A stretch of DNA of 64,000 nt from an uncultured Pseudomonadota bacterium (lineage in GTDB: Bacteria; Oederibacteriota; Muellerivitia; Muellerivitales; Muellerivitaceae). The first letter of the stretch is position 1. Each line of letters begins with the position of its first letter. Shown one piece after another: positions 3,076 through 21,568 of the stretch. The stretch spans positions 1,184,001 to 1,248,000 of the forward strand of contig CAWIIP010000002.1 in assembly GCA_963836235.1 (NCBI GenBank), in the 5' to 3' direction. The notes beneath the pieces were generated by a model, which had not been told where the DNA came from, ran no database searches, and was given only the letters and a program-made list of their open reading frames with translations. The translations under genes were made by a program, and so were the position numbers.

Positions 3076-3169
<94 letters not shown>

Positions 3170-7467: not shown

Positions 7468-7479
7468 CTCAATAATGAT

Positions 7480-7752
7480 CTAAAGATTGCGAAGAATTCT
7501 TTCCAGTTCTTTTCGGTCCAAGACACGCAAAACAACCACTCCCTTTTCAGTGGGTTCGAAGAGGGACCGGTAATTCCCGGTTCTTAAGCGGTAAAGATTC
7601 TTATAACCTTCCAGTTTTTTTAACTTGGGTGGGCCGGGCCAAGGGCGGGTTTGCGGGATTTTCAGGTCGTCCAAAATTTCCCCGGCGGCGGCTTTTTCAA
7701 GGGCTTTCAAATCCCTCAAAGCACGGGGTGAAAGCTCAACCAGGAGGGGCAA
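7480..7752 (-). CDS. RelE-family toxin
   Basis: SPRALRDLKAL...KKLEGYKNLYRLRTGNYR; TTG start directly after the antitoxin stop. Confidence 0.85.
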   Translation of the reverse strand: MPLLVELSPRALRDLKALEKAAAGEILDDLKIPQTRPWPGPPKLKKLEGYKNLYRLRTGNYRSLFEPTEKGVVVLRVLDRKELERILRNL

Positions 7753-7753
7753 A

Positions 7754-8008
7754 TCAGAGTCCCAGCCGCTTGCGGGCGTCCGAAAGGGAAACCCCGCCTT
7801 TCTTGCCATATTCCTTCCTCGACTCCTCGATTTGGGCCATGAACTCTGGCTGCTTATAAACCAAATCCTCTATTTCGTCCTCGGTCAGGTGCAGCAGGAC
7901 GGCCTGGGGCTTTCCATGGTTCGTAATGACGTATTTTTCCCCTTTTTCCACGTCCTTCATCACCGAAGGGGTTTTCAAGCGCAAGTCGCGCATATTCACG
8001 AATTTCAA
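7754..8008 (-). CDS. Phd/YefM antitoxin
   Basis: VNMRDLR...VITNHGKPQAVL. Confidence 0.88.
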   Translation of the reverse strand: MKFVNMRDLRLKTPSVMKDVEKGEKYVITNHGKPQAVLLHLTEDEIEDLVYKQPEFMAQIEESRKEYGKKGGVSLSDARKRLGL

Positions 8009-8019
8009 GGGGGACTCCT

Positions 8020-8041
8020 ATGTTACTTATTTGAGTAACAT
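8020..8041. promoter_or_regulatory. Putative TA autorepression operator
   Basis: ATGTTACT-N6-AGTAACAT palindrome just upstream of the antitoxin. Confidence 0.5.
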
Positions 8042-8092
8042 TATTTTAAGCCCCGGCCAGACGGAAAGCAAGCGTTCGGACAGCGGATTTTT

Positions 8093-8120
8093 TGTCCAAC
8101 CCGGGTCCCCGTCGTGGACA
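8093..8120. repeat. 28-bp cassette site (distal)
   Basis: TGTCCAACCCGGG-TC-CCCGTCGTGGACA. Confidence 0.9.
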
Positions 8121-8123
8121 ACT

Positions 8124-9107
8124 TCACCCGCCGCCTTTTCGATCATACCCACATTTCCCACAAAATTTTTGGTTGTGTTGAATGGGATGCCCGCACGTGA
8201 GACACCGCATGGTTTTTAACCAATAAAAGACTAAGTAATAGAAAAGGGCAAAAAACAAAACCCCGGTCAAAATTCCAAACAATGGGTTTATGAAAAGCAT
8301 CATAAAAAGATTGAAAAAGATAACCGAAATATAAGAGGTCGTATTTAATGAATAAAAACCACCATGGAATTGTTTGATGAAGGCGGGAAGATCCATATAA
8401 CTATTCGGGGGAACAAGAGGCTGAACAGGGTATCTAATTGTGGGAAAGGACTTGTCCTCAAATTTGAGTACCTCCGGGGTGGGGGTAGGTAACAATTCCG
8501 ATGTTCCCAATTCATTTGATTCCGACGCCCGCAACAAGAAGCTAATGTTTTTATAACAAAATGGGAGACCGTCAAAAGAATTACTCCGTTCCACAACCTG
8601 ATGAACAAGTTTCATATCCAGTTTTATATTTTTTCCACCCACGGCAAGAGTGAGCGGTTTTTGAATTGGGGTTGGCACGACGGTCGGGCAGAAAAAATAA
8701 TCGTTTTTAAAATCCTTAGGGAATTGTTTCGTATGCGGTTCTGTCTTGGGGAGGATTTCGATATTGATCCCGTCAAAATTCATTCCTAAAGCAGGGCCAG
8801 CAGTGCATATTCTTAACAAGAACAACGAACCATCCTTTTTTTGGAGCCATGCGCCATAGGTGTTCTGGAGCCCGTCCTTCGTTTTGCCCAGTTGAAATTT
8901 CAGATCGCATGGAAGTTTATAGGTCGTTTGCGGGTTGGTGACGCTCTCGAATGTTTGGACAAGCAAAGGCTGGTCCGATCGGCCATGGCCCTGAATCGCG
9001 AAAATGCCACAAAGAATGATGATCAGACTCATTACGAAATAATGACGAGGCAACAGATAACGCAGCTTCATCGATACCCACTTCCTATTCAGAAACGAAA
9101 GTGCCAA
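8124..9107 (-). CDS. Hypothetical membrane protein with C-terminal double CxxC zinc ribbon (cassette)
   Basis: N-terminal TM/signal, C-terminal TMs, CLTCG...FCGKCG. Confidence 0.7.
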   Translation of the reverse strand: MALSFLNRKWVSMKLRYLLPRHYFVMSLIIILCGIFAIQGHGRSDQPLLVQTFESVTNPQTTYKLPCDLKFQLGKTKDGLQNTYGAWLQKKDGSLFLLRICTAGPALGMNFDGINIEILPKTEPHTKQFPKDFKNDYFFCPTVVPTPIQKPLTLAVGGKNIKLDMKLVHQVVERSNSFDGLPFCYKNISFLLRASESNELGTSELLPTPTPEVLKFEDKSFPTIRYPVQPLVPPNSYMDLPAFIKQFHGGFYSLNTTSYISVIFFNLFMMLFINPLFGILTGVLFFALFYYLVFYWLKTMRCLTCGHPIQHNQKFCGKCGYDRKGGG

Positions 9108-9139
9108 CTTTATTATCCTGCTGTTTACCAGATTTTACC

Positions 9140-9167
9140 TGTCCACTCCGGGTCCCCGTCGTGGACA
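9140..9167. repeat. 28-bp cassette site
   Basis: TGTCCACTCCGGG-TC-CCCGTCGTGGACA. Confidence 0.9.
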
Positions 9168-9176
9168 ACCTTGGTG

Positions 9177-9842
9177 TCATAAGCTCCAAAATTCGTAACC
9201 AAGAGAAAATAACCCATCTAGATGTTGGCCAAAACCATTGATGGATCTCCCATCATTACTTTTAAGGGTATTGTTATAAATATAACCCTCCCCTAGTTCG
9301 AGTCTTGCGTCCAAAACAAAATTACCGAGTTCAAATGAAGCGCCAAAGTCGAACCCCCAATCCAATGGGTTGTAGGAAGGAGTGGTTGACGCTGGAAAAC
9401 CGGCGGGGACCGAAGGGCTATAGAGCCCCTGTAAAAGCAAACCGGTATAGGGCCCAAACAAAAGGTTTGCTTTAAAATCCTGGATGGTCAGAACCTTTCC
9501 TTTCAGGAGGAGCGGTATTTCCAAATAGGGGAAAGGGTAACGATAACTTGGATAGTTAGGATTACTGTAGACATCTTCATCCCCTTTTAAGACATATAAA
9601 AGCTCAGGTTGGAATGATAGGAAGTCATAGATTTTTATGTCGGAAAACAACCCCACATTGAACCCATAATAACCCGCACCCCCAAAGTAAAAAGTTCCTG
9701 TTCCTCCTACAGCTGGATAAATTTGGCAATTAGTAACACCCGCCTTAACCCCCAACGTGACTGGATCGGCCCAGGAATACATGGATGAAAAAAATTGGAG
9801 GAAAAGAAAACAACTAGTAATAAATAAGCTTGGCTTCATCAT
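9177..9842 (-). CDS. Outer-membrane beta-barrel, porin-family (cassette)
   Basis: Signal peptide, GVKAG, FQPELLY..KG, YLEIPLLLK, terminal SLGYEF. Confidence 0.8.
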   Translation of the reverse strand: MMKPSLFITSCFLFLQFFSSMYSWADPVTLGVKAGVTNCQIYPAVGGTGTFYFGGAGYYGFNVGLFSDIKIYDFLSFQPELLYVLKGDEDVYSNPNYPSYRYPFPYLEIPLLLKGKVLTIQDFKANLLFGPYTGLLLQGLYSPSVPAGFPASTTPSYNPLDWGFDFGASFELGNFVLDARLELGEGYIYNNTLKSNDGRSINGFGQHLDGLFSLGYEFWSL

Positions 9843-9902
9843 GCCTCCCTATTCTGGACAACTTATCTTGCCTTTATTTTAGCTCTTTGACGGCAAAAGG
9901 GT

Positions 9903-9930
9903 TGTCCACGACGGGTCCCCGTCGTGGACA
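9903..9930. repeat. 28-bp cassette site (perfect)
   Basis: TGTCCACGACGGG-TC-CCCGTCGTGGACA. Confidence 0.95.
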
Positions 9931-9932
9931 AG

Positions 9933-10796
9933 TTAAACAACGGCCTTGATTCGTTTCCAATCCTCTTCAATAAAACCAACCACACTGTCATCCTGATTCG
10001 ATCCGATGATCTGATGGGCATGTTTCTTTAATTCCGGCTCGGCGTTGCTCACGGCGATGCTTCGATCCGCTATCTTGAACATCTTGATATCGTTCATGTG
10101 GTCCCCAAAAACCACCAATTCCCTGTCCTGAAGTCCCATTCGCTCCTGAAGAGTGCGGATCGCCTGGTCCTTGGTTGCCCGGTGGTCGTGGATGGTCAGC
10201 CAGTGCCAACCACGACAATAGATGTCCTCAACAAAATGGGTTTCCACCCCTGACCCATGACTTTTTTGGATGGTTTTTTCCAAAGGTTGTAAGGTTTCCT
10301 CTTTCCCAATGACCGTCAGGCAAACCACATCTTGGGATTTGATGGCTTCGAAATTCCTTACCTGGAGAAGCCGATGGTCGTTATTTTTCCTACGGTCGTT
10401 CAAATAAAATTCCATCCCATCATTCTTGATCTCGCTGTAATAAAGCCGGTCATTTTCGCCGTCGAACGCGGATACGAAAGGCAGGTGTCGATGATCCAAA
10501 ATGGTTTTGAGGAGGTCTTTCACGATCTCAGGTTGGATACAGTTGATGAGCTGATGGTCACCGGTTTGGTAATCAGAAATAAAAGCGCCGTTGAATTCGA
10601 TGACCGGCAAAGCAAGGGAAAGCCCCCTTAAAACCTGGCGGATGGAAACGATGCTCCGGGCACTGGCAACGGTGAACAGAAGTCCTTCCTTCAATAAAAA
10701 CTCTAAAGTGCGCAAGGAAACATCGGACAATTTCCCATTATTGGCAAGAAGGGTTCCATCCAAGTCCGATATATATAATGGTTTCGTCGAAGTCAT
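9933..10796 (-). CDS. Cof-type HAD-IIB hydrolase (cassette)
   Basis: SDLDGTLL, ASAR, FGDHMNDIKMF. Confidence 0.9.
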   Translation of the reverse strand: MTSTKPLYISDLDGTLLANNGKLSDVSLRTLEFLLKEGLLFTVASARSIVSIRQVLRGLSLALPVIEFNGAFISDYQTGDHQLINCIQPEIVKDLLKTILDHRHLPFVSAFDGENDRLYYSEIKNDGMEFYLNDRRKNNDHRLLQVRNFEAIKSQDVVCLTVIGKEETLQPLEKTIQKSHGSGVETHFVEDIYCRGWHWLTIHDHRATKDQAIRTLQERMGLQDRELVVFGDHMNDIKMFKIADRSIAVSNAEPELKKHAHQIIGSNQDDSVVGFIEEDWKRIKAVV

Positions 10797-10842
10797 GTCC
10801 TATTATTCTTCATCGGTTTCTTTCGCGCCAAGGATTTTCCCT

Positions 10843-10870
10843 TGTCCAATCTGTGTCCCCGTCGTGGACA
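10843..10870. repeat. 28-bp cassette site
   Basis: TGTCCAATCTGTG-TC-CCCGTCGTGGACA. Confidence 0.85.
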
Positions 10871-10875
10871 ACCAC

Positions 10876-11307
10876 TTAACCAATCTTCTTATATAAAAAG
10901 TACCGTTCGCTTCCCTTTGGGAAGTGTTTTAAGGAACCAAATCTTTTAAAACCTAATTTTCGATAAAATCCCGGAGCTTGGAAATCGAAAGTGTCCAAAT
11001 GGACATACTTGCAGCCCCTCTTTTTTGCAACTGCCTCAGCCTTATTAAGGAGTTGAGTTCCAATGTCCTTGTTCCTGTGTTTTTCATCCACCCATAACAT
11101 TTTTACAAAAAGCCAGCCCCAATAGGTGCCGCTGACCAAACCGGCGATCAATTTCCCCTTGGAGTCGATGGCCTCAAAATCCAAGTCCTTCCAATTGAAA
11201 CGGCCAATCTTTTTCGCGTTATAAGCATTGAGTTCTTGGACAACCCTATTTCGGAATTTTTTATTCGATGACGATACGGGTTTGATTGAAGCTGAAGTTC
11301 TTGTCAT
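10876..11307 (-). CDS. GNAT acetyltransferase (cassette)
   Basis: LWVDEKHRNKDIGTQLL, LDTFDFQAPGFYRKLGF. Confidence 0.9.
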   Translation of the reverse strand: MTRTSASIKPVSSSNKKFRNRVVQELNAYNAKKIGRFNWKDLDFEAIDSKGKLIAGLVSGTYWGWLFVKMLWVDEKHRNKDIGTQLLNKAEAVAKKRGCKYVHLDTFDFQAPGFYRKLGFKRFGSLKHFPKGSERYFLYKKIG

Positions 11308-11351
11308 GCCGCCCCTTTACGCCTTAATAAATAATCATCGCCTGAAAAGGT

Positions 11352-11379
11352 TGTCCACGACGGGTCCCCGTAGTGGACA
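11352..11379. repeat. 28-bp cassette site
   Basis: TGTCCACGACGGG-TC-CCCGTAGTGGACA. Confidence 0.92.
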
Positions 11380-11410
11380 GATTTTTTATATCAAAAGGGC
11401 GAATTGGAAT

Positions 11411-12544
11411 TTATTGGATTTCCCGGATCAGGTTGTTGTCCTGGTCCGCGATGTAGATTTTCCCGGAGGAATCCACCGCGATTCCATCAGGCTGGTTGAA
11501 AAGGGCCTGGTAGCAATTTCCGTTGGTTGAACCCGCGACCCCCACTTTTCCCAACAGGGTCGTCACCACGCCCCCTGGGGTAATTTCACGGATCAGGTTG
11601 TTCCACGCGTCCGTCACGTAAACATTTCCGGAGGAATCCACCGCGACCCCAAGGGGCATATTGAAAGACGCCGCGGTCCCGATTCCGTCGGCCGAGCCGG
11701 CTGACCCGGACCCCGCCAGGGTCGTCACCACGCCTCCCGGAGTGATTTTCCGGATCATGTCGTTGTAAGAATCCGCGACATAAACATTCCCCGAAGAATC
11801 GACCGCGAGTCCAACGGGATTATAAAAAGACGCGGCGGTTCCGGTTCCGTTGGTGGCCCCCCAGGCACCCGATCCCGCCAGGGTCGTCACGACGCCGCCC
11901 GGGGTAATTTTCCGGATGAGGTCGTTGGTTTGATCCGCCACATAAACGTTTCCGGAAGCATCGACGGCTATTCCCCAAGGTCCGTTGAACGAAGCGGCGG
12001 TTCCCGTTGCGTTTACCGCGCAACAAGGCCCGCCTCCGGCCAAGGTGGTCACCACCCCACCGGGGGTTATCATCCGGATCAGGTTGTTAATGGTATCCGC
12101 GACATAAACATTGCCCGAAGAATCCACCGCCAGGGCGTAGGGAGTATGAAAGGACGCGGCGGTCCCGGTGGCGTTGACGGCTCCAATCGCCCCGGACCCG
12201 GCCAAGGTCGTTACTACCCCACCTGACGTGATTTCCCGTATCAGGTTGTTGTAAGTATCCGCCACATAAACATTCCCGGAAGAATCCACGGCGGCCCCCG
12301 TAGGGAAATTGAACGACGCGGCTGTACCAGTGGCGTTGACGGCTCCAACCAACCCGGACCCCGCCAAGGTCGAAACGATTTTCCCGCTACAGGTGGGGGT
12401 AGGCGAACCTGTGGCGGTAAAGGTTTTGGTGGGAGGTGGAGCGGGAGTTGGAACGCTCAGAGGGCCTAACGTATAGGTCTTCTGGCAAGCCAGGGGGAAC
12501 AGGCCGATCAAGAGGATTACCGCGATAAGGAAAAGTCGATTCAT
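11411..12544 (-). CDS. NHL-repeat lipoprotein (cassette)
   Basis: Lipobox LAC, six repeats of FN.P.G.AVDSSGNVYVAD..N..IR.IT. Confidence 0.9.
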   Translation of the reverse strand: MNRLFLIAVILLIGLFPLACQKTYTLGPLSVPTPAPPPTKTFTATGSPTPTCSGKIVSTLAGSGLVGAVNATGTAASFNFPTGAAVDSSGNVYVADTYNNLIREITSGGVVTTLAGSGAIGAVNATGTAASFHTPYALAVDSSGNVYVADTINNLIRMITPGGVVTTLAGGGPCCAVNATGTAASFNGPWGIAVDASGNVYVADQTNDLIRKITPGGVVTTLAGSGAWGATNGTGTAASFYNPVGLAVDSSGNVYVADSYNDMIRKITPGGVVTTLAGSGSAGSADGIGTAASFNMPLGVAVDSSGNVYVTDAWNNLIREITPGGVVTTLLGKVGVAGSTNGNCYQALFNQPDGIAVDSSGKIYIADQDNNLIREIQ

Positions 12545-12596
12545 ACTTGCCTCAATTATAGAAGCGTAACGAAGATTGGATTATACCCCTTTTACC

Positions 12597-12624
12597 TGTC
12601 CACGATGGGTCCCCGTCGTGGACA
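12597..12624. repeat. 28-bp cassette site
   Basis: TGTCCACGATGGG-TC-CCCGTCGTGGACA. Confidence 0.92.
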
Positions 12625-12638
12625 AGTGTTTTCGTTGA

Positions 12639-12923
12639 TTAATGAGCGGCCAGATGGTGGCGTTTCTTTTTAGCTAGATAGTGCTGGTCCAATCCTTGGC
12701 GAAGGATCGATTTGATAACTGCTTGGCGGCTTACATTCATTTCGCGGACCAACCCATCCAATTCCTTAAGCATGTTTTCCGCGAAATCCACATTGACCCG
12801 GCGGATGGCCGGCATCATTTTTCCGTGGTTCGTAAAATGTTTCGAGATGTTCTCCCCTTTGTCAGCCATTTGAGCTAATTGTTCAGCCGTTGGAACTGTT
12901 TTTGCCTTATGAATGGTTTTCAT
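12639..12923 (-). CDS. CopG/RHH antitoxin (BrnA-type partner)
   Basis: RRVNVDF...LD....MNVSRQAVIK; overlaps the upstream toxin. Confidence 0.8.
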   Translation of the reverse strand: MKTIHKAKTVPTAEQLAQMADKGENISKHFTNHGKMMPAIRRVNVDFAENMLKELDGLVREMNVSRQAVIKSILRQGLDQHYLAKKKRHHLAAH

Positions 12924-13185
12924 ATAATTTCCTTTCTTCCTTAGTGGATTTCCAAAGAGTGACTAAGTGAATGTACTCGCCATCCCGATCCGTTCTCTCT
13001 TCATAGATCACGGTATAGAGCCTTTCCCCAACCCAACCAATAGCCCGCCATTGCTCCGGTAAATCCGAACGCTGGTCAAGGTAGTAAGGGCTTTCCCAAA
13101 GCATTTGGGCTTCCTCGAAACCAATGCCACGTGCCCGGTTCCGACGAAGGCTATTGCTCTTGTTCCTGTCGAACTTAAACCGCAT
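12907..13185 (-). CDS. brnT: BrnT-family toxin
   Basis: FKFDRNKS...RGIGFEEAQ...ERKLYE; operator-like palindrome GTATAAC-T-GTTATAC at 13197-13211. Confidence 0.85.
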   Translation of the reverse strand: MRFKFDRNKSNSLRRNRARGIGFEEAQMLWESPYYLDQRSDLPEQWRAIGWVGERLYTVIYEERTDRDGEYIHLVTLWKSTKEERKLYENHS

Positions 13186-13257
13186 CTACGCTCCATGTAT
13201 AACTGTTATACCATCTATTCCTGATTACCTCAAGAAAGCATCCGGCACGAATTTAGG

Positions 13258-13285
13258 TGTCCACGACGGGTCCCCGTCGTGGACA
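13258..13285. repeat. 28-bp cassette site (perfect)
   Basis: Exact consensus. Confidence 0.95.
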
Positions 13286-13302
13286 GCCTTTGAATGGGTT
13301 CC

Positions 13303-15021
13303 TCATTCAAAACCATAGAATGAATAAGGAACTGATTTTGAATCTTTCACCGTGCTGTTGACATAAACTTTACCGGAATCGCTGTCGTAGAGCCAACCTA
13401 TGTTACTACCAGTGGGGACTTCCCCCTTTTTGGCCATAGTGACATAATTTCCTTCCGGGCTTTTGGCACTTGCGACAAAAGCGCTAGTGACCTGGACCAT
13501 GGGAATAACTTGGGTTCCGGATGTATCCCTGCTTTCCATCACAGCCTGTTCCAGTTTTTCGGATGAGGCCGGCCAGCGATGGTGTTTTTGATGGTATGAA
13601 TGAACCCCTATATAAATCCGCAACAAATCACAACGAGTACAAGTTTCGTTCGTTTTTTCGACCATCTGGGCAAAGCGTGGCCTAGAGAACGAACTCATCA
13701 ACCATGTTTTTCTCCAGTCATCATCACGGACATGTTCAGCGGCGGCGGGACCCATTTTGAGAGCTTTCATATATTGGACACCATAATCATATTGGGAACC
13801 CTGGTCGAATAGCAAAAAGGGCCAATAAATGATTCCAAAGAATTTGCTAATAGCATTGCCTTCGAGGGTTACATATCCCCACCAACCTAATTGGCAAAAA
13901 TCCGTCAAATAAAATTTAAACAAGTCGTTTTGCATCGCTGTAAAAAATTCAGTTCTGATCCTACTCGGCTCAATGAAAGGAAAAAGCTCCATCCCTCCTT
14001 TCCCTTTTACCTCTAAAAGCGGCAAAACTCGCTCGGCTGGAGCCACCATCATTCCCGCAACGGCCACACCTATCATTTCTCCAATTAAGGTATGGGTTTG
14101 ATCCACCATATCTGCCAATAGGAACCCCTCCTCAAGGCTGCGGACCGCACCTTGGGCATTTCCGTCCATGGCTTGCACGGTCGCCCGAAAACGGATCAAA
14201 CGCGCAAGAGACAAAAGATGTGTCATCCGTGGAATAGCGATTTGCCAAGAGGGTTTATGATTCCAGTCAATTCCCCAATCTACTCCCTTGTATTCCGTAG
14301 TGGCGTCGATCAACCGGAAAGCATCTTCATGTTCTTTCAACAACTTTCGGGCATAGGCCTTGTCCTCGGCTGTCACGAGACCCTGGGAAACCCGGTGGGT
14401 GAAATAAATCGCGAATTCATCTTCAGCCATCTTTCCAAAAAAGGGCTGGTTGGTCAGGTTGGGCTGATTTTTATGATTCCCATATTTCCGTGTGTTTTCG
14501 GAAAACCTGCCATTGGGTGCGGGGTCATCATAAATTGCCGATAGCCCTCCGAATTTACGCATGGAAGGCGAGTTCCAGGCCTCGTTGATGAGGACAACGG
14601 CGTTTTGATCGTCCGGCAGCACGGGTGCATTTGACGAGGGTTCAAGGCTGTACCCGCCTTCTATGACGTCTTTTTGTGCGATGTTCAGGGAGATTTGCCC
14701 CATATACCGCCAAAAAAAACCGCCAGCTACATAACCCAGGATCATGAATAATAAAAACGGAAGGATGGAGCTAGCGAGTGCCCGAAACCCATTTTTCTTT
14801 TTGCGGTATTTCGGGAACGATTTTCTCCACAACCAAAAAAGGAAAGGGACTGATGCCGCCAATAACAGAAGAGTGATTGCCCAAAACCAAAAGGACTTGG
14901 TATCGGACCAAGGGGTTAAGCCCGACCAAGGCATGATTTTGCCAAGCCAGAAACCCGGCAAAGTTACCAACAATAAACCAGCTACCACTGGGGGCCAGAC
15001 GGTTTTCCAAAGAGATTTCAA
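13303..15021 (-). CDS. Hypothetical membrane protein (cassette)
   Basis: 572 aa with 3 N-terminal TM helices and a helical body. Confidence 0.75.
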   Translation of the reverse strand: MKSLWKTVWPPVVAGLLLVTLPGFWLGKIMPWSGLTPWSDTKSFWFWAITLLLLAASVPFLFWLWRKSFPKYRKKKNGFRALASSILPFLLFMILGYVAGGFFWRYMGQISLNIAQKDVIEGGYSLEPSSNAPVLPDDQNAVVLINEAWNSPSMRKFGGLSAIYDDPAPNGRFSENTRKYGNHKNQPNLTNQPFFGKMAEDEFAIYFTHRVSQGLVTAEDKAYARKLLKEHEDAFRLIDATTEYKGVDWGIDWNHKPSWQIAIPRMTHLLSLARLIRFRATVQAMDGNAQGAVRSLEEGFLLADMVDQTHTLIGEMIGVAVAGMMVAPAERVLPLLEVKGKGGMELFPFIEPSRIRTEFFTAMQNDLFKFYLTDFCQLGWWGYVTLEGNAISKFFGIIYWPFLLFDQGSQYDYGVQYMKALKMGPAAAEHVRDDDWRKTWLMSSFSRPRFAQMVEKTNETCTRCDLLRIYIGVHSYHQKHHRWPASSEKLEQAVMESRDTSGTQVIPMVQVTSAFVASAKSPEGNYVTMAKKGEVPTGSNIGWLYDSDSGKVYVNSTVKDSKSVPYSFYGFE

Positions 15022-15186
15022 ATTAATATTCCCTTCTCCATTACATGCAAAAGAAAATTGTTAGAAATCCCAAAACACCTCGTTGGCCCATAATAAAGCC
15101 GCCTCGATTGGCCGGACCGGAACCGGTTTATCTCATCTTGGTCCGTTGAGATATGCTCCTGAAAACAGGGGCCATCCATTTTTCCT

Positions 15187-15214
15187 TGTCCACGACGGGT
15201 CCCCGTGGTGGACA
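15187..15214. repeat. 28-bp cassette site
   Basis: TGTCCACGACGGG-TC-CCCGTGGTGGACA. Confidence 0.92.
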
Positions 15215-15226
15215 ACCAAAACCTAT

Positions 15227-15811
15227 TTATTTGCGATCAACCCATTTTTCCACAGATGTTGGAATATAAGCTTCCATTTCCTTAAGAAGTTGTTCCGGCT
15301 CTTGGGCCACCAATATCATTTGACGGTGTTCCTCCCTCAAAAAACGCTGGTCAACGGCGTGGTCCAAAAAATCCATCAAACGGTCGAAATAACCACGGAC
15401 GTTTAAAAAACCAACCGGTTTCGAATGGATGCCCAACTGCGCCCAGGTCAAAACTTCTGTCACTTCTTCCAATGTTCCCAGACCCCCGGGCATGGCAACG
15501 AACCCGTCCGACAATTGGAACATCTTGGTCTTTCTTTCGTGCATTGTTGGAACAACGTGAAGTTCCCCCAGGCCCTTATGGCCAACCTTTTGATTGAGTT
15601 CTTCGGTAATGACCCCAATCACTTCCCCCCCATGGCTCAAAACCGAGTTGGCGATCTCCCTCATTAGACCCACATTCGCCCCCCCATAGATAAGCGAACT
15701 ACCCCTCTGCGCCAGCCTCTTTCCCAACTCGCGGGATGCATCGACATACTCGGGGTGAGCCCCTGGGCTGGAGGCACAATTGACGCAAATTCTTTTTAGT
15801 TTTCCAGACAT
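15227..15811 (-). CDS. LOG-family (TIGR00730) nucleotide phosphoribohydrolase (cassette)
   Basis: LIYGGANVGLM, MHERK, MPGGLGTLEE. Confidence 0.92.
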   Translation of the reverse strand: MSGKLKRICVNCASSPGAHPEYVDASRELGKRLAQRGSSLIYGGANVGLMREIANSVLSHGGEVIGVITEELNQKVGHKGLGELHVVPTMHERKTKMFQLSDGFVAMPGGLGTLEEVTEVLTWAQLGIHSKPVGFLNVRGYFDRLMDFLDHAVDQRFLREEHRQMILVAQEPEQLLKEMEAYIPTSVEKWVDRK

Positions 15812-15850
15812 TTAAACCACCTTTATAAAAAACCATCACTTAAATTTACC

Positions 15851-15878
15851 TATCCAAGAAGGATCCCCGTCGTGGACA
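15851..15878. repeat. 28-bp cassette site (degenerate left arm)
   Basis: TATCCAAGAAGGA-TC-CCCGTCGTGGACA. Confidence 0.85.
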
Positions 15879-15888
15879 ACCAAAATAT

Positions 15889-16572
15889 TTAAGCGGGGAG
15901 CAATCCTGGCAATTCCATCAAACTCTGTATAACGGGAACTTCTAAACCCGATTCCACACCCCTGCTTTTGCGGTCCAGCCAAATACCTTTCATCCCGGCT
16001 TTTTGACTGCTCCTAGCATCTGTTTCTAATCGATCTCCTACGTAAACACAATCTGTCAATGGAACTCCCGCTTGTTTCGCGGCCAATTCAAAGATGGCTT
16101 GTTCGGGTTTGGCGCAACCCACCTCACCGCTGATGATGACGGTCGAAAAATATGGTTCCAAGTCTGTCTTTCGGATTTTGGACCGGTGTTGTTCCTTTTC
16201 ACCGTTGGTGATTAGCCCTAGGGAGCGTCCTTTCAGGGACCGCAAGCATGGAAGGGAGTCGGTGAAGAGTTCCCACCGAGATTCATAGGTATCCAGGTAC
16301 ACCTGAAAACGGGCATCTGCCTCGATCTCGGAAAGAGGATGGGAAAAGATTTCCCTCACCCTACCCCTGCGGCGTTCCTCTGTAGTCAACCTCAGGAAAG
16401 GAGAATTTGACTGGAAATATTTTTCCGAAACGGTTTCCCAACGCAAAAGAAAATCTTCCAAGTCTTCCTTAAAAGAAGACCGGTAAGTTTCATAGACCTT
16501 TGTGGCCCCGGCTTTGGCTGCGGCGCTGTGGTCCAAAAGAGTATCATCGAGGTCAAAAAATACCATGGTCAT
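15889..16572 (-). CDS. HAD-IA hydrolase (cassette)
   Basis: FFDLDDTL, ITNG, KP, VGDRLETD. Confidence 0.9.
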   Translation of the reverse strand: MTMVFFDLDDTLLDHSAAAKAGATKVYETYRSSFKEDLEDFLLRWETVSEKYFQSNSPFLRLTTEERRRGRVREIFSHPLSEIEADARFQVYLDTYESRWELFTDSLPCLRSLKGRSLGLITNGEKEQHRSKIRKTDLEPYFSTVIISGEVGCAKPEQAIFELAAKQAGVPLTDCVYVGDRLETDARSSQKAGMKGIWLDRKSRGVESGLEVPVIQSLMELPGLLPA

Positions 16573-16584
16573 CCTTTTATCCCT

Positions 16585-16612
16585 TGTCCACGACGGGTCC
16601 CCGTCGTGGACA
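16585..16612. repeat. 28-bp cassette site (perfect)
   Basis: Exact consensus. Confidence 0.95.
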
Positions 16613-16696
16613 AGGTCTGACTAACCTTTTTATTCTGTGTAGTATTTCGTGTCCAAACAAAACTTGGGATAGGAAAGATCGATTTTCGAAACACTT

Positions 16697-17095
16697 TTAA
16701 ACATGGGGAAACACCTTTCTTATCCATGCCTGCAAAACCAAAGCGTTGGTACAAGCGCATAAAACAATAATCAAAAACCAAGTAAAATATTTCCATTTAA
16801 ATTTGGAAGTGTATAAAAGAAACATTCTTATCAGCAACACATAAACGACGATGAAGCCATATAGTGGCACCGCGCTCCCTTCCAAGCTCCAATTAATTGA
16901 TAGCGCTTTATAAACAATCCGAAGAAGAATAAAGGGCGCGCTAACGAAATAGTATTGAACATTGGCGCTAATAATTTCGAGCCAGAAATAATTTGAATTG
17001 TTCAGGATTTTTACTTCTTTTGTTGCCCACAGAACAAAAGACACACCCGCAACTAAAACCATTTCACTGAGTAGTTTAGATTTATTAATATTCAT
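16697..17095 (-). CDS. Hypothetical multi-TM membrane protein (cassette; start at 17095 or 17143)
   Basis: Hydrophobic AT-rich ORF; the longer called ORF reads through the repeat site. Confidence 0.6.
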   Translation of the reverse strand: MNINKSKLLSEMVLVAGVSFVLWATKEVKILNNSNYFWLEIISANVQYYFVSAPFILLRIVYKALSINWSLEGSAVPLYGFIVVYVLLIRMFLLYTSKFKWKYFTWFLIIVLCACTNALVLQAWIRKVFPHV

Positions 17096-17156
17096 GTTTA
17101 TTAATGGTTTCCCGAGTTGGTCTCGAACTGGCCCGGCATTCATTCTCAATTTCACC

Positions 17157-17184
17157 TGTCCACGATGGGTCCCCGTCGTGGACA
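17157..17184. repeat. 28-bp cassette site
   Basis: TGTCCACGATGGG-TC-CCCGTCGTGGACA. Confidence 0.92.
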
Positions 17185-17237
17185 ACCTTTTCACTAATTT
17201 TTAACCCCACCACAAGAATCACTTTTGAGTTTTCTAT

Positions 17238-18137
17238 CTATTCTTTATTCCAATCCCTCAGAAGAGAATCCACTTCATATTTCAAATGCCTGTTTTTTGT
17301 GCTTTTTGAAAAATCTTCCAATGATTTTTTAACATTGTCATTTTTCATCTTCGTTAAAATCAAAAGCGCTTTATCTCGCAGATCATCTTTTTGGGATTCA
17401 TCTCGCAAAACTTTTATAATCGGCGAAAGTATCAGCTTTTGAACATCCATCGAAGCGCCCGATTGTTCTAAAAGCTCCATTGCCTCTGCCGCTTTAATTG
17501 AAACTTCCGGTGTCATATTCAAAGCTTTAATGAGGATCGGCTTGGCTTTTTCGTCCACATAGTTTCGATCTTTTAAAAAGTCATATTCATAAAGCGAATT
17601 TATTTCGTACCATTCATTATTTTCCAACCACCTTTGGTAATAAGGGGTCACAGTTTTTAAATCATCCAAACGATACAAAATATACACGGCATTTTTATCT
17701 TTATTGTTTCCAGTCAAAAACTCCTTCATTTTTTCAATAATAATTTTTTTATCATTCTTTTGAAATACCGGATCATTTTTCAAAGATGAGACTAACGCAC
17801 CCAGGACATAGAACGGGGAAAGGGATTTTAAATCGGTGGGATTATTTATTAAATCCAACACAGGCCCGATGGCCCGTCGGTCCCGCGAATTTGAAATCTG
17901 TTTTAAGGCTGCCTGTTTTTCCTCTAAATTCCCATTCTTAAGTTTTTCCAATAACTCGGATAAATGAGCCTGTATTGTTTGGGCTTCGGCCCGGGTTAAT
18001 TCTTCGGTCTTAACTCGACTTAACCGTTTTTCATCTTCATTACCAACGCTCTGTTTCTCGGTTTGGCCAAAACCGGGCGGAACACTTAAAAAGGTTAGCG
18101 TTATTAAAAATAATGCATTCCTCATAATTGATTTCAT
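17238..18137 (-). CDS. Secreted HEAT-repeat-like protein (cassette)
   Basis: Signal peptide, helical repeats (D.RAIGPVL; LRDKALLIL). Confidence 0.65.
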   Translation of the reverse strand: MKSIMRNALFLITLTFLSVPPGFGQTEKQSVGNEDEKRLSRVKTEELTRAEAQTIQAHLSELLEKLKNGNLEEKQAALKQISNSRDRRAIGPVLDLINNPTDLKSLSPFYVLGALVSSLKNDPVFQKNDKKIIIEKMKEFLTGNNKDKNAVYILYRLDDLKTVTPYYQRWLENNEWYEINSLYEYDFLKDRNYVDEKAKPILIKALNMTPEVSIKAAEAMELLEQSGASMDVQKLILSPIIKVLRDESQKDDLRDKALLILTKMKNDNVKKSLEDFSKSTKNRHLKYEVDSLLRDWNKE

Positions 18138-18169
18138 ATAACACCTTTCAATTTTTATGGCTTTTCACC

Positions 18170-18197
18170 TGTCCAATGCGGGTCCCCGTAGTGGACA
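18170..18197. repeat. 28-bp cassette site
   Basis: TGTCCAATGCGGG-TC-CCCGTAGTGGACA. Confidence 0.88.
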
Positions 18198-18233
18198 GCG
18201 TTTCATCTTCCTAAACGTCAATTATTTCCTTTT

Positions 18234-18626
18234 TCATTTCTTCTTTTTAAATTCCCCTACTTTAAATATTGCTTGGGCGCAAACTGCGATAACACAATTT
18301 ATTGCAACCATTGCGATCAACAACAAGACGTCCGAATCCCCCGTTAGGGCTGGAATAATGCCAAGGTAATACAGATACAACCGTAGTCCGATCATAAACA
18401 AAGCGGAGAGCAACCAAATAAGGGTGAATTTAGAAATAAATTTTCCCTTATCATCCCTAACAAATATGAAAACCAAAAAAACCATAAGAATAAAATAAAC
18501 AATAGTGCCACCGACAAGATGATGCAATTCCTCGGATAATCCCAAGGGATCCAAAATCAAATCCGACGCCCACCAGCCGCCGGCACCGATGAATATTGCG
18601 ATTAATGTTTCTATCCAGGTTGCCAC
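18234..18626 (-). CDS. Hypothetical 4-TM membrane protein (cassette)
   Basis: Four hydrophobic segments; fills the interval between sites. Confidence 0.7.
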   Translation of the reverse strand: MATWIETLIAIFIGAGGWWASDLILDPLGLSEELHHLVGGTIVYFILMVFLVFIFVRDDKGKFISKFTLIWLLSALFMIGLRLYLYYLGIIPALTGDSDVLLLIAMVAINCVIAVCAQAIFKVGEFKKKK

Positions 18627-18652
18627 TTATTCACACCCCTAGTGCTTTTCCC

Positions 18653-18680
18653 TGTCCACGATGGGTCCCCGCCGTGGACA
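18653..18680. repeat. 28-bp cassette site (proximal)
   Basis: TGTCCACGATGGG-TC-CCCGCCGTGGACA. Confidence 0.9.
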
Positions 18681-18831
18681 TGTTCCAATCCATGAACCAT
18701 TCTCCATCCATCCTTAGACCCGCGCCACAAGGATAAGCCCTCTAAAACCCAAGCAGGCCCTTCACCTTATCGGTGGCCGATTTGGCCTGGTCGGCCGTGT
18801 TGACCGCGCTTTGATAATTTTTCACTCCGGC
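18681..18831 (-). repeat. Diverged copy of the ParB-like gene 3' end plus trailer (21570-21718)
   Basis: Encodes ...GVKNYQSAVNTADQAKSATDKVKGLLGF* versus GVKGYQSAVNTADQAKSATDRVKSLLGF*. Confidence 0.9.
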
Positions 18832-19198
18832 TCCCCGCCGGGAACAGGCTAAGACCGGAACTGAAGGTAAAAGTTCGGGTCAAGGGGAAAAACCGGGGAG
18901 TGGGATGGGGAATTCCAAGGCAGATAAGGCAAATAGTAAAATTAATTTGACGAAATCAGCCGGTTTTTTTCAGGCCTAATTTATGTTCGATTTTTCGGAC
19001 GCGCTCTTCGAGAGTTGCATTATCAGACATGGAACGCTTTAAAATGGAGTTCATGAGAGTTTGGTAAGGGATTCCCTGTCTTTTGCCTTCCTCGATAAGC
19101 CAATGGTAAACCGACTCATCCAACCGGAAGGTTTTCTGGATCTTGGAACCTTTGGAAGCTAAGAGAGGGCCCTTATGGACCTTCGCTTTAGAAAAATC

Positions 19199-20685: not shown

Positions 20686-20743
20686 GAAAAATCATATTCT
20701 TTTTTCATAGTTTTCCCGTTCCTTTCGCGTGGCTTTTCTGGCC

Positions 20744-21460: not shown

Positions 21461-21540
21461 TACCCATCCTTTTAATATATCCTACATTGTAGGACTTTTT
21501 GGAAAACAGTCAAGATTCACTTAAACCGGCTGATAAAGGT

Positions 21541-21568
21541 TGTCCACGACGGAGCCCCGACGCAGACA
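21541..21568. repeat. Degenerate 28-bp site downstream of the ParB-like gene
   Basis: TGTCCACGACGGA-GC-CCCGACGCAGACA. Confidence 0.8.

Follow-up and report, generated by a model that had tools for sequence, protein, structure and literature searches.

The window, the whole 64,000-nucleotide stretch that was analysed, derives from the genome (labelled G000) of a soil bacterium of the uncultured phylum FCPU426. Thirteen copies of a 28-bp site with the consensus TGTCCACGACGGG-TC-CCCGTCGTGGACA lie between positions 8093 and 18680 and divide off 12 co-oriented units carrying unrelated genes, all of them on the strand opposite to the sites (Table 1). The first-pass annotation had counted 13 copies within 9140–18197; the count was correct, but that span holds 11 of them, the first and the last lying just outside. 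With as many as 2 mismatches allowed, the 15-mer TCCCCGTCGTGGACA gave 20 matches in the window, where 0.16 would be expected and where 100 shuffles yielded no more than 2. These repeats are a genuine family, far more frequent than chance predicts. An isolated half-site was also located at 47169–47186, on the opposite strand to the array sites.

Table 1 Coordinates of sites, cassettes and neighbouring features in the window. L and R, mismatches in the left and right arm.
Feature	Position	Strand	Description
Toxin-antitoxin pair	7480–8008	-	ParE toxin with Phd/YefM antitoxin; immediately outside site 1 and not followed by a further site
Site 1	8093–8120	+	TGTCCAACCCGGG-TC-CCCGTCGTGGACA; L 3, R 0; distal array end in direction of transcription
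Cassette 1	8107–9153	-	327-aa protein with C-terminal zinc ribbon; gene 8124–9107
Site 2	9140–9167	+	L 2, R 0
Cassette 2	9154–9916	-	Outer-membrane beta-barrel protein (OMP); gene 9177–9842
Site 3	9903–9930	+	Perfect consensus
Cassette 3	9917–10856	-	Cof-type HAD hydrolase; gene 9933–10796
Site 4	10843–10870	+	Left arm TGTCCAATCTGTG; L 5, R 0; ssDNA hairpin just -3.3 kcal/mol
Cassette 4	10857–11365	-	GNAT acetyltransferase; gene 10876–11307
Site 5	11352–11379	+	Right-arm variant GTAG
Cassette 5	11366–12610	-	NHL-repeat propeller; gene 11411–12544
Site 6	12597–12624	+	Left-arm variant CGAT
Cassette 6	12611–13271	-	BrnT toxin and RHH antitoxin pair; 12907–13185 and 12639–12923
Site 7	13258–13285	+	Perfect consensus
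Cassette 7	13272–15200	-	572-aa protein, no Pfam family; gene 13303–15021
Site 8	15187–15214	+	Right-arm variant GTGG
Cassette 8	15201–15864	-	LOG/lysine-decarboxylase-like protein; gene 15227–15811
Site 9	15851–15878	+	Left arm TATCCAAGAAGGA; L 4, R 0
Cassette 9	15865–16598	-	HAD hydrolase; gene 15889–16572
Site 10	16585–16612	+	Perfect consensus
Cassette 10	16599–17170	-	Unknown protein; listed ORF 16697–17194
Site 11	17157–17184	+	L 1, R 0
Cassette 11	17171–18183	-	299-aa protein, weak HEAT-repeat match alone; gene 17238–18137
Site 12	18170–18197	+	Left arm TGTCCAATGCGGG; L 3, R 1
Cassette 12	18184–18666	-	130-aa hydrophobic protein, no family; gene 18234–18626
Site 13	18653–18680	+	L 1, R 1; right flank 90% identical to flank of the 21541 site
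Remnant unit	18667–18832	-	Homologous to DNA just past the 3' end of the ParB-N-like gene 21629–23404
Degenerate terminal site	18819–18846	+	TTTTCACTCCGGC-TC-CCCGCCGGGAACA
IS66-family insertion sequence	19197–20689	+	Transposase 19253–20677; between array end and the 21541 site
Degenerate site	21541–21568	+	GC in the centre, left arm perfect, right arm poor; ParB-N-like stop codon 60 nt away

The listed GTG start of the cassette 10 gene overlaps site 11, so the true start probably lies further in. A 99.9% identical copy of the IS66 element is present at C5:2863-4355.

As the annotation had described, the central TC and the CCC that follows it are invariant in 13 of 13 copies, and the two arms are unequally conserved. 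The right arm (positions 16–28), at the stop codon of the minus-strand gene, carries 0–1 mismatches and is perfect in 9 of the 13 copies, while the left arm (positions 1–13), before the next start codon, carries 0–5; both variant left arms that had been quoted, TGTCCAATCTGTG and TATCCAAGAAGGA, were found in the window. The asymmetry holds genome-wide. In a search that treated both arms equally, the 76 sites of the genome averaged 2.04 mismatches in the left arm versus 0.83 in the right, the left arm being the worse in 43 sites and the right in 17 (tie in 16).

The 76 sites form 12 arrays and 8 singletons, and site orientation is strictly linked to gene strand in all 12 arrays. By analogy with established serine-recombinase chemistry, the asymmetric TC may enforce the uniform orientation, which fits this strict link. 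Of 30 further genomes in this family, 26 contain the site, its sequence being conserved across at least 16 genera; it was found in none of 67 genomes from more distantly related families of the phylum. Two copies of the site carry a group II intron that homed there.

Pairing between the arms

Scoring of the 13 arm pairs at each of the 76 sites gave 5 compensated, 49 G-T and 149 broken cells, versus a mean of 7.6 compensated cells in an arm-shuffling control. There is thus no excess of compensatory changes, in keeping with the annotation's observation that the mismatches are uncompensated and no hairpin is conserved. Single-stranded folding energies of the 13 window copies ranged from -3.3 to -14.4 kcal/mol; the consensus site forms a perfect 12-bp stem, and 4 of the 13 copies fold no better than 9–65 of 200 shuffles. 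On the gene strand, the palindrome lacks a downstream T-run. The missing covariation, together with the folding energies, supports a double-stranded site rather than a conserved hairpin, as had been suggested.

The same data bear on whether the 28-mers could be small sites of attC type, whose folded single strands would be the substrate of an integron-type enzyme or another that recognises hairpins. The arrays do resemble those of integrons and CALINs in their co-oriented, promoterless-looking cassettes, toxin-antitoxin pairs and GNAT gene, and the stem of the consensus is perfect. However, pairing shows no compensatory change and is poor in the four copies above; no IntI was detected in the genome (best TIGR02249 score 40.9 bits versus a cut-off of 265); attC sites conserve structure rather than sequence, unlike the 28-bp site; and the two arms of a site belong to different cassettes, as detailed below, whereas a whole attC travels with its cassette. 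This reading is considered highly improbable.

Cassette exchange and the crossover point

Cassettes are shuffled between arrays. The NHL cassette has a 100% identical copy over 1276 bp in a second array of the genome (C4:57528-58803), among other neighbours, and the BrnTA cassette has a 91% identical copy as the terminal cassette of a third array (C5:251281-251958), where homology begins at site position 11. Both the GTAG variant of site 5 and the CGAT variant of site 6 move with the NHL cassette to contig C4, the latter to C4:57529. The right flank and right arm of site 2 recur beside a different left arm in locus L041, and the position-13 variant of site 9 is unlike that of another site with the same right flank. 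Soil-metagenome contigs join across sites (9148 to 16594) and break at site edges, and array ends bear hybrid sites with one good and one foreign arm.

Linkage between arms and flanks was assessed by comparing flank pairs in a non-redundant set of 361 sites taken from G000 and its relatives, which yielded 55 left-flank-only pairs, 27 right-flank-only pairs and 3 sharing both. Non-consensus left arms were common to 18 of 28 left-flank pairs versus 0 of 17 right-flank pairs, and right-arm variants to 0 of 20 left-flank pairs versus 5 of 10 right-flank pairs. Arms travel with the adjacent flank, and each site is a hybrid of the arms of neighbouring cassettes, as the annotation had proposed. Among pairs whose flanks are at least 95% identical, left-flank-only pairs (n = 15) differed at 3 left-arm and 12 right-arm positions and right-flank-only pairs (n = 14) at 43 left-arm positions and 1 right-arm position, with no differences at positions 14–18 in either set. 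Since variants at 11, 12–13 and 13 segregate with the left flank and those at 18 and 19 with the right, positions 14–17 (TCCC) are left for the crossover, as judged from a small number of informative variants, with one to two pairs for each position. This window contains the TC, and the predicted central switch point was thereby recovered; taken by itself, it is also compatible with a short tyrosine-type overlap.

Shuffling of this kind might instead be a by-product of homologous recombination between REP-like intergenic palindromes, serving as protein-binding sites, mRNA stabilisers or targets of Y1 (RAYT) transposases. The 76 copies per genome are always intergenic and just behind stop codons, the genome encodes three Y1_Tnp proteins, a homologue of one lies inside an array in locus L046, and group II introns home to hairpins as the intron did to two copies here. 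Nevertheless, exchange persists with unrelated left arms (e.g. TGTTCCTTTT and TTGGCGCGCT), where just 18 bp of identity is left, short for RecA-dependent exchange, and the breakpoints still fall within the same central stretch. Rather than being dispersed, the copies are grouped into 12 accessory-gene arrays, no Y1 gene occurs within 10 kb of any site in the genome, and neither conserved pairing potential nor a T-run on the gene strand accompanies the palindrome. REP-like elements are therefore a very unlikely explanation.

A short serine recombinase beside the sites

The candidate enzyme is a serine recombinase of ~278 aa in which PF00239 and PF07508 are the sole domains, with neither zinc ribbon nor coiled coil. 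Its Ser/Arg/Asp catalytic residues are invariant, and the fold predicted for it agrees with those of large serine recombinases in complex with DNA, 4kis (127 columns, 2.9 Å) among them. No large serine recombinase without a zinc ribbon is known to be active. The short form makes up a discrete clade of 19 clusters (275–283 aa, 74–100% identical, 0 with a zinc ribbon) whose next relatives are at most 61% identical. It is under purifying selection, with dN/dS of 0.04–0.16 in all unsaturated pairs. A search for a separate C-terminal half, using the C-terminal half of a paralogue as query, found none. The single intact copy in the genome (C2:163827-164663) lies about 1 Mb from the window array; no recombinase adjoins that array or most others of the genome.

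Of the family's 27 genomes with sites, this one included, 5 yielded an intact short recombinase. A site begins 18–39 bp past the gene in 4 of the 5, and in the fifth the gene-proximal arm and TCC are present and then interrupted. Fragments of the 3' end of the gene are likewise followed by a site (5 of 6), and on metagenome contigs with at least 75% identity a site occurs within 130 bp in 5 of 5 evaluable cases; the orientation is the same in four, at up to about 52 bp, and inverted in one (L223), at 126 bp. As controls, even half-sites were absent from all 73 loci of large serine recombinases at most 61% identical, and 0 of 4 loci of full-length paralogues held a site or half-site. The association between recombinase and site is specific to the short form.

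On contig L221 a single site comes after the recombinase, and its two arms correspond to the two outer arms of the two-cassette array in G000. The DNA past this site is homologous to G000, which has an extra gene between the site and the shared flanking gene; the contig appears to represent a nearly empty platform, though given that gene not a clean empty-versus-filled pair. In the window, the right arm of the degenerate site at 18819–18846 terminates in GGAACA, which mirrors the left arms of TGTTCC type that adjoin the serine recombinase in relatives, and this site is proposed to be the outer half of a split platform site.

Four site-rich, nearly complete genomes, G050 (99%, 27 sites), G066 (98%, 39), G047 (90%, 34) and G044 (89%, 38), contain no serine recombinase at all, and good conservation of their sites persists. 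The explanation would be a different enzyme, a gene missed by these assemblies or arrays that turned fossil recently. A housekeeping tyrosine recombinase acting on double-stranded 11-6-11 crossover sites like dif, with cassettes akin to Xer-dependent modules, would explain these genomes. In G000 it could be the single Xer-like protein (353 aa, C1:328834-329895) or one of six paralogous 367-aa integrases, of which one lies 5.4 kb from the window array (1612–2715). The site equals dif in length (28 bp), pairs one conserved with one variable arm as plasmid Xer sites do, and has a near-invariant 8-bp core, GGGTCCCC, as expected of an overlap region. Yet tblastn with all eight tyrosine recombinases of G000 detected none in related-genome loci (up to 6 kb on each side of the site), the integrase copies in G000 adjoin tRNA genes and not arrays, and variants at 12–13 and 18, inside a 6–8-bp overlap, segregate cleanly with one flank. 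The GC-rich core also differs from known dif cores, and the association of the sites with a serine recombinase is specific. A tyrosine recombinase is accordingly judged unlikely. The annotation had held that the site fits either a 13-TC-13 or an 11-6-11 parse; linkage alone does not fully separate the two, and the serine parse is favoured because the short serine recombinase adjoins sites and no homologue of the eight tyrosine recombinases of G000 was found within 6 kb of the sites in related genomes.

From these comparisons of sequence, the 28-mers are probably double-stranded site-specific recombination sites of integron-like cassette arrays, with the short serine recombinase as the likeliest enzyme. 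In each site an asymmetric TC is framed by two inverted arms of 13 bp, and sites bound mobile one- or two-gene cassettes in head-to-tail arrays. With strand exchange at the site centre, a cassette carries a conserved arm past its stop codon and a more variable arm, particular to itself, ahead of its start codon, making every array site a hybrid of two neighbouring cassettes. Exchange would be catalysed, with a 2-bp staggered cut at the TC, by this family-specific derivative of a large serine recombinase, which keeps the catalytic and DNA-binding recombinase domains. Sections of PMC3783163 describe the recombinase and zinc-ribbon domains as jointly contacting a 25-bp half-site, with the zinc-ribbon motif at bp 16–24 or 11–19, and the coiled coil as controlling directionality. 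Without a zinc ribbon, the half-site read should be about 13 bp, not 20–25 bp; without a coiled coil, the attP x attB directionality lock should be missing, so that the reaction may run in both directions, giving cassette excision (site x site) as well as insertion. The recombinase gene occupies one end of some arrays, head-on to the cassette genes, with a platform site 18–52 bp after it whose gene-proximal arm is specific to each recombinase subgroup. The window array may be served in trans by the intact copy on C2. Convergent transcription of recombinase and cassettes, unlike that in integrons, offers no account of cassette expression.

Comparison with known systems

No description of such a system was found in the literature searched. 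The 28-bp length, the conserved and variable arms and the small gene modules bounded by sites are shared with Xer/dif, the pdif modules of Acinetobacter plasmids and IMEX. Unlike pdif sites, which alternate in orientation, those described here all point the same way, and they differ from Xer/dif in the GC-rich core, the lack of a linked Xer gene and a linkage window below 6 bp. REP elements with RAYT are also short intergenic palindromes in many copies per genome; the present sites are instead clustered in arrays, locked in orientation to genes, do not flank Y1 genes and bound moving units.

Among serine recombinase systems, the crossover sites of small resolvases and invertases (Tn3/gamma-delta res site I, hix, gix) share the geometry, pointed to by the annotation, of 26–28-bp inverted repeats centred on a 2-bp overlap; one dimer occupies each site. 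The small enzymes are about 180–200 aa, have a C-terminal helix-turn-helix and require accessory sites or an enhancer; here the recombinase domain is of the large serine recombinase type and no accessory sites are evident. Large serine recombinases and serine integrases (A118/LI, Bxb1, phiC31) share homologous catalytic and recombinase domains, the predicted fold and simple pseudo-palindromic double-stranded sites with a non-palindromic central dinucleotide, and Ccr-mediated SCC elements can likewise accumulate in tandem at one site. In contrast, the module of zinc ribbon and coiled coil is missing throughout the short clade, sites measure 28 bp versus 40–50 bp, all sites are equivalent with no attP/attB pair, and the arrays carry single genes as cargo instead of a phage or island.

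Integrons (IntI, attI and attC, including sedentary chromosomal integrons and CALINs, which are attC clusters without an integrase) share the head-to-tail, co-oriented cassettes of one or two genes, the unrelated accessory functions including toxin-antitoxin pairs, and cassettes common to several arrays and genomes. In both, some arrays have at one end a recombinase gene with a special site next to it, many lack a recombinase, and group II introns have homed into sites. The present arrays differ from integrons in their serine-family recombinase, 28-bp sequence-conserved sites without structural covariation, mid-site crossover that makes each site a hybrid of two cassettes, convergent rather than divergent recombinase and cassette genes, and a dozen arrays per genome. 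The system looks like an integron built from different parts.

Structure and distribution of the 28-bp sites

The repeat search returned one dominant repeat family at window positions 8000–20000, with the core TGTCCACGACGGGTCCCCGTCGTGGACA. At up to 2 mismatches, the window contains 20 copies of the right-half 15-mer, where 0.16 would be expected. Each 28-bp site consists of a left arm (positions 1–13), a central TC (14–15) and a right arm (16–28); the right arm adjoins the stop codon of a minus-strand gene, the left arm precedes the next start codon, and the unit between two site centres is referred to as a cassette. The first-pass annotation had counted 13 copies between 9140 and 18197; 13 good copies were found, 11 of which lie within that span. 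Its description of their sequence was borne out: the central TC and the following CCC are invariant in all 13 copies, the stop-codon arm (read on the + strand) has 0–1 mismatches and is perfect in 9, and the start-side arm has 0–5.

All intersite genes lie on the minus strand, with 2–84 nt between stop codon and conserved arm. Their products are unrelated and comprise a zinc-ribbon protein, an OMP beta-barrel, two HAD hydrolases, a GNAT protein, an NHL propeller, a BrnT/RHH toxin-antitoxin pair, a LOG-like protein and four proteins without a clear family. The gene of the NHL cassette (11417–12372) contains five to six tandem 162-bp repeats, 69–87% identical, which match its propeller blades. 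Elsewhere in the window, a half-site stands alone on the opposite strand at 47169–47186, where a perfect conserved arm and core (TGTCCACGACGGGGACCC) are followed by unrelated sequence. It lies ~110 bp from the start of a shikimate kinase gene (46484–47059), with no cassette gene adjoining, and may be a scar or a secondary site.

The genome under study (G000; 3.97 Mb, 99% complete), in which the window occupies C2:1184001–1248000, was searched with the 28-mer at up to 7 mismatches, treating both arms alike and keeping the better strand. This search yielded 76 sites, of which 68 fall in 12 arrays of 2–14 sites and 8 are singletons. Site orientation is tied to gene strand in the same way in every array, and the central TC is present in 71 of the 76 sites. 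The arm asymmetry extends genome-wide, with a mean of 2.04 mismatches in the left arm versus 0.83 in the right; the left arm is the worse one in 43 sites and the right in 17. These figures are based on G000 alone because the loci of relatives had been seeded with a perfect right half, so that their conservation profile overstates right-arm conservation. A possible reason for the asymmetry is that dimers bind cooperatively, so that one strong half-site is enough, and that a weak arm on the start side reduces excision.

Of the 30 other family genomes, 26 (16 or more genera) carry the 18-mer GGGTCCCCGTCGTGGACA at up to 1 mismatch, as does the one sister-family genome; it was found in none of the 67 genomes of the phylum's other families. 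One record that carries the label Candidatus Firestonebacteria also has a perfect 28-mer (L076:5991–6018). The remaining matches in records not of the FCPU426 type (Actinomycetota, Myxococcus and others) contain the 18-mer half only and look like chance matches in GC-rich DNA. Genome-wide, the site varies most often at position 10 (C→T, giving CGAT) and position 19 (G→A, giving ATCG), both being transitions at the CpG dinucleotides beside the core. This pattern suggests a mutational hot spot, possibly cytosine methylation, and not selection.

A site recombined as a folded strand or acting as an RNA hairpin would be expected to conserve arm pairing, which the first-pass annotation had judged absent. 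Among the arm-pair cells (13 pairs in each of 76 sites), 785 were consensus, 149 broken, 49 G-T and 5 compensated. Shuffling the right arms among sites gave a mean of 7.6 compensated cells, and the observed 5 was reached in 1825 of 2000 shuffles; compensation is thus below the shuffle mean, in agreement with that judgement. Single-stranded DNA folding of the 13 window copies ranged from −14.4 kcal/mol, for three perfect copies, to −3.3 kcal/mol, and the copies at 8093, 10843, 15851 and 18170 were equalled or beaten by 65, 27, 27 and 9 of 200 shuffles, respectively. An Rfam search of window 7000–22000 at E ≤ 1 gave a single chance lncRNA match and no family for the site.

Coordinates of sites, neighbouring features, introns and recombinase-proximal arms (window coordinates unless a contig, locus or genome is named)
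Feature	Location	Strand	Details
Good 28-mer copies (start positions)	8093, 9140, 9903, 10843, 11352, 12597, 13258, 15187, 15851, 16585, 17157, 18170, 18653		n = 13
367-aa tyrosine integrase	1612–2715		tRNA-Ser genes at 2752–2838 and 3076–3167 adjoining
Toxin-antitoxin components flanking the array	7480–8008; 20744–21043		Phd/ParE pair; MqsA-like antitoxin
IS66-family element	19197–20689		just past array end; 474-aa transposase (DUF6444, zf-IS66, DDE_Tnp_IS66)
ParB-N-like 591-aa protein	21629–23404	minus	remnant at 18681–18818; long low-complexity stretches, transmembrane segment
Group II intron, copy 1	approx. L308:463–2393 (G000 C2:1476562–1478492)		436-aa ORF, RVT_1 + GIIM
Group II intron, copy 2	approx. 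L309:150–2080 (G000 C1:223049–224979)		436-aa ORF, RVT_1 + GIIM
Proximal arm CGTCCCCTAGGGG or TGTCCCCTCAGGG	G000, L220, L221, L222		
Proximal arm TGTCTACTACGCC	G052, L071		
Proximal arm TGTTCCTTTTGGG or TGTTCACTTTGGG	G048, G067, L225		
Proximal arm TGTCCACGATGGC	G054, L224		

Cassette movement and position of the crossover

Two window cassettes recur elsewhere in the genome. The NHL cassette (11350–12625) is present at C4:57528–58803 with 100% identity over 1276 bp and with other neighbours. The BrnTA cassette is found at C5:251281–251958, 91% identical, as the last unit of an array, with homology beginning at site position 11.

Linkage of arm variants to flanking DNA was analyzed in 361 non-redundant sites, pooled from G000 and the loci of relatives, by comparing 120 nt on each side. 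Left flanks only were shared in 55 pairs, right flanks only in 27, and both in 3. Where flanks were at least 95% identical, the left-only pairs (n = 15) differed at 3 left-arm and 12 right-arm positions, and the right-only pairs (n = 14) at 43 left-arm positions and 1 right-arm position; positions 14–18 showed zero differences in either set. Non-consensus left arms were common to 18 of 28 left-only pairs and 0 of 17 right-only pairs, and right-arm variants to 0 of 20 left-only and 5 of 10 right-only pairs. The hot spots at positions 10 and 19 add noise to this analysis. Each arm is therefore inherited together with the flank on its own side, as proposed when the sites were first described as hybrids of arms from neighbouring cassettes.

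Rare variants in the core delimit the switch more closely: T at 11, CC at 12–13 and A at 13 follow the left flank, and T at 18 and variants at 19 follow the right. Under a tyrosine-type parse with an overlap of 6–8 bp, the variants at 12–13 and 18 are inside that overlap; each segregates with one flank, in 1–2 pairs each. Exchange is therefore placed within positions 14–17 (TCCC), central TC included, and the earlier proposal of a switch at TC fits this interval, with 1–2 pairs per informative variant. The site is very probably double-stranded and centrally exchanging, judging from these sequence comparisons.

Insertion by central exchange into a pre-existing site predicts hybrid sites at array ends, and such sites were seen. 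Left ends combine a foreign left arm with a good right arm (C2:164698, C1:399376, C4:146642 and C5:251271–98), and right ends a good left arm with a foreign right arm (C2:168009, C5:4394 and window 21541). At the window array terminus, 18819–18846, the right arm is CCCGCCGGGAACA. Three soil-metagenome runs from one study share 0.20, 0.14 and 0.05 of the window in low-depth contigs. One soil-metagenome contig connects position 9148 with position 16594, each inside a site, and leaves 20 letters ambiguous; loose contig ends pile up at site edges (12591, 13258, 13294, 15180, 15840, 15880, 16583 and 17148). These joints and ends agree with other cassette orders in related strains and are no measure of circles or of excision rate, and gaps in coverage carry no information.

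Candidate recombinases

The enzyme acting on the sites was sought among all recombinases of the genome. The best match to the IntI-type integrase model (NCBIfam TIGR02249) in the whole of G000 scored 40.9 bits against a cut-off of 265, and similar sub-threshold matches were obtained in 14 control genomes. G000 encodes eight tyrosine recombinases (six 367-aa paralogues that are 57–70% identical, one Xer-like protein of 353 aa and one of 425 aa), three Y1 transposases and two serine recombinases. No recombinase adjoins the window array; the nearest genes are an IS66 transposase (19253–20677) and the 367-aa integrase at 1612–2715. The IS66 element has a 99.9% identical copy inside another array, at C5:2863–4355.

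Several candidates were rejected. The six 367-aa paralogues are scattered, none lies beside an array, and they probably belong to separate integrative islands. No site comes within 10 kb of any of the three Y1_Tnp (RAYT) genes, and none of the four loci of full-length large serine recombinase paralogues (512–570 aa) has a site beside it. All-against-all BLAST of the array flanks in G000 identified a sole recurring gene family, of 591–784 aa; its proteins weakly resemble ParB-N at the N-terminus (E = 0.09) and contain low-complexity or transmembrane stretches. Besides the member in the window, two longer paralogues (625 and 784 aa) and two fragments adjoin four other arrays (C5:39555, C1:368632, C2:413658 and C4:862644). 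This family behaves as cargo or neighbour and was dropped.

When all G000 recombinases were compared by tblastn with the array loci of other genomes, a short serine recombinase was found beside sites in four loci (L069, L071, L079 and L148), together with a weaker large serine recombinase match in L089, and no tyrosine recombinase was found. The same search located a Y1 (IS200-like) transposase gene between two sites of a relative's array, as if it were a cassette (L046:5555–6499); this gene is 72% identical to C5:263448–264407 of G000.

In G000 the short recombinase gene (278 aa; C2:163827–164663) ends 35 bp before the first site (164698) of array A5, and it and the A5 cassette genes are transcribed towards each other. 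Intact short forms are present in the relatives G054, G052, G048 and G067 (open frames of 281–329 aa, 74–81% identical), and full-length relatives of 512–570 aa are 48–55% identical. A same-orientation site follows the gene by 18–39 bp in G000, G052, G048 and G067. Among six gene fragments ending at residues 266–272, a site follows in five (three in G048, one each in G070 and G072); none follows the sixth, on G052:C57. Seven metagenome loci encode proteins at least 75% identical to the short recombinase. Two of these contigs stop, one inside the arm and one inside the gene, and in all five evaluable loci a site lies no more than 130 bp away; in four its orientation is the same and the distance at most ~52 bp, and in one (L223) it is inverted at 126 bp. 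The other 73 metagenome loci, encoding large serine recombinases 55–61% identical, show no half-site even at up to 3 mismatches.

The recombinase-proximal arm of the adjoining site varies by recombinase subgroup and includes TGTCCCCTAGGGG, TGTTCCTTTTGGG and TGTCTACTACGCC. L221, whose recombinase shows 89% identity, has just one site after the gene, TGTCCCCTCAGGG-TC-CCCCTAGGGGACA. In G000, array A5 has CGTCCCCTAGGGG as its outer left arm and CCCCAAGGGGACA as its outer right arm, with a TPR-protein cassette and a beta-lactamase-fold cassette between them. Past the right arm the two loci are homologous and share a gene with 68% nucleotide identity; an additional gene is present there in G000. The pair looks like one platform site split by central insertion, a comparison that is supportive rather than conclusive. 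In L303 (G054:C9) the site breaks after TGTCCACGATGGC-TCC and is followed by unrelated DNA with an inverted repeat, and the complete platform site is present in L224, a metagenome contig 99% similar to L303. Either DNA was inserted at the centre of the site or an exchange went wrong.

The short protein matches two Pfam families, PF00239 (residues 13–159, 79.3 bits) and PF07508 (187–271, 52.7 bits), and no other; R18, S20, D89, R90 and R93 are invariant in 18 aligned sequences. By database search, the short clade forms a discrete group of 19 clusters (P0001–P0019) of 275–283 aa, 74–100% identical. Both domains are present in all 19, and the PF13408 zinc ribbon with its coiled coil is absent from all 19. 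Identity beyond the clade is at most 61%, and many of those proteins have the zinc ribbon; in the alignment the short proteins end right before the CxxC motif of the long relatives. A split gene was rejected, as tblastn with the C-terminal 245 aa of the paralogue detected no separate C-terminal half in the genome or the array loci. The gene is maintained and is not a decaying remnant because dN/dS is 0.04–0.16 in every unsaturated pair among 11 genes (for example, 0.082 at dS 0.45 and 0.073 at dS 0.11). The best Foldseek matches of the AlphaFold model (mean pLDDT 76.6) are serine integrase-DNA complexes, including 9dxh, Bxb1 9iu2, phiC31 and 4kis_A (127 columns, 2.9 Å).

According to PMC3783163, the recombinase and zinc-ribbon domains jointly contact a 25-bp attP half-site, the zinc-ribbon motif lies at bp 16–24 in attP and 11–19 in attB, and the coiled coil inserted in the zinc ribbon controls site selectivity and directionality. 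A protein without this module would read ~13 bp per half-site, giving 13-2-13 = 28 bp, and would also miss the lock against the reverse reaction. Excision and insertion of cassettes through equivalent sites would call for such an enzyme, and all sites share one 28-bp consensus, not a distinct attP/attB pair.

An intact short recombinase is present in just 5 of the 27 site-bearing family genomes (G000 and 26 others). PF00239 is absent altogether from G044, G047, G050 and G066, which are 89–99% complete and carry 27–39 well-conserved sites. These genomes resemble integrase-less attC clusters and leave room for a second enzyme, such as the Xer-like protein. The head-on arrangement of recombinase and cassette genes offers no obvious promoter logic. 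The whole case is one of comparative sequence analysis, from which we consider it likely that the short serine recombinase moves the cassettes by central exchange.

Comparison with known cassette systems

Two group II intron copies, 99.8% identical and with differing outer flanks, each interrupt a different 28-bp site at the same point, with TGTCCACGA(T/C)GGGGACCC(A) as upstream exon and TCGTGGACA as downstream exon. Taken together, the data incline us towards a joint reading in which FCPU426 would possess a gene-capture system, complete and active, with an evolutionary origin separate from integrons. Its compact bidirectional enzyme would be a large serine recombinase that has shed the zinc-ribbon/coiled-coil module; it would insert, excise and shuffle single-gene cassettes at double-stranded sites of 28 bp, exchanging strands across the 2 bp of TC, and would serve a dozen arrays per genome in trans. 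The system would be parasitised by its own site-specific group II intron.

To our knowledge, integrons are the only well-established bacterial system that stockpiles and reshuffles single genes as cassettes, and their defining feature is a tyrosine recombinase that works on attC folded as a single strand. If the joint reading is true, cassette capture arose more than once, here with an unrelated enzyme and ordinary double-stranded sites. Such a system would be unseen by current integron finders, since these look for IntI and attC structure. The 28-mer provides an exact sequence tag of cassette boundaries, with which the accessory genes of a poorly known soil and peat phylum could then be catalogued systematically. 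The integrases now in genome engineering have 450–600 aa and 40–50-bp sites; a 278-aa enzyme with a 28-bp site, possibly bidirectional, would, if active, be far more compact. It would also probe the structural model in which the zinc-ribbon/coiled-coil module sets site length and directionality.

Like integrons, the system presents arrays of co-oriented mobile cassettes; the introns in the 28-mers parallel the group IIC-attC introns, and the toxin-antitoxin components flanking the window array recall the stabilising toxin-antitoxin cassettes of chromosomal integrons. Unlike integrons, it lacks IntI. An attC site is about 55–140 bp long, is conserved in structure rather than sequence, and is recombined as a folded strand with an outer-edge crossover, so that the whole attC moves with its cassette. 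The present site, in contrast, is 28 bp long, conserved in sequence across most of the family and free of structural covariation, and its crossover in positions 14–17 splits the arms between cassettes. With large serine recombinases, which use distinct attP and attB sites of about 40–50 bp for unidirectional integration, the short enzyme shares the catalytic domain with its serine nucleophile and the recombinase domain PF07508, but not the zinc-ribbon/coiled-coil module or the attP/attB dichotomy. The 28-mer geometry also fits the 11-6-11 layout of Xer/dif sites, and the single Xer-like gene of G000 is not linked to arrays. Unlike REP/RAYT elements, the sites are clustered and not dispersed, and the Y1 genes are unflanked by them. 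A full-text literature search outside subscription journals returned no serine-recombinase cassette array, no zinc-ribbon-less large serine recombinase clade and no FCPU426 mobile elements. Because the integron features tested (IntI, attC structure and edge crossover) fail, the array excepted, and because the defining module and site dichotomy of large serine recombinases are missing and no description was found in that literature, we class the arrays as a new kind of cassette system.
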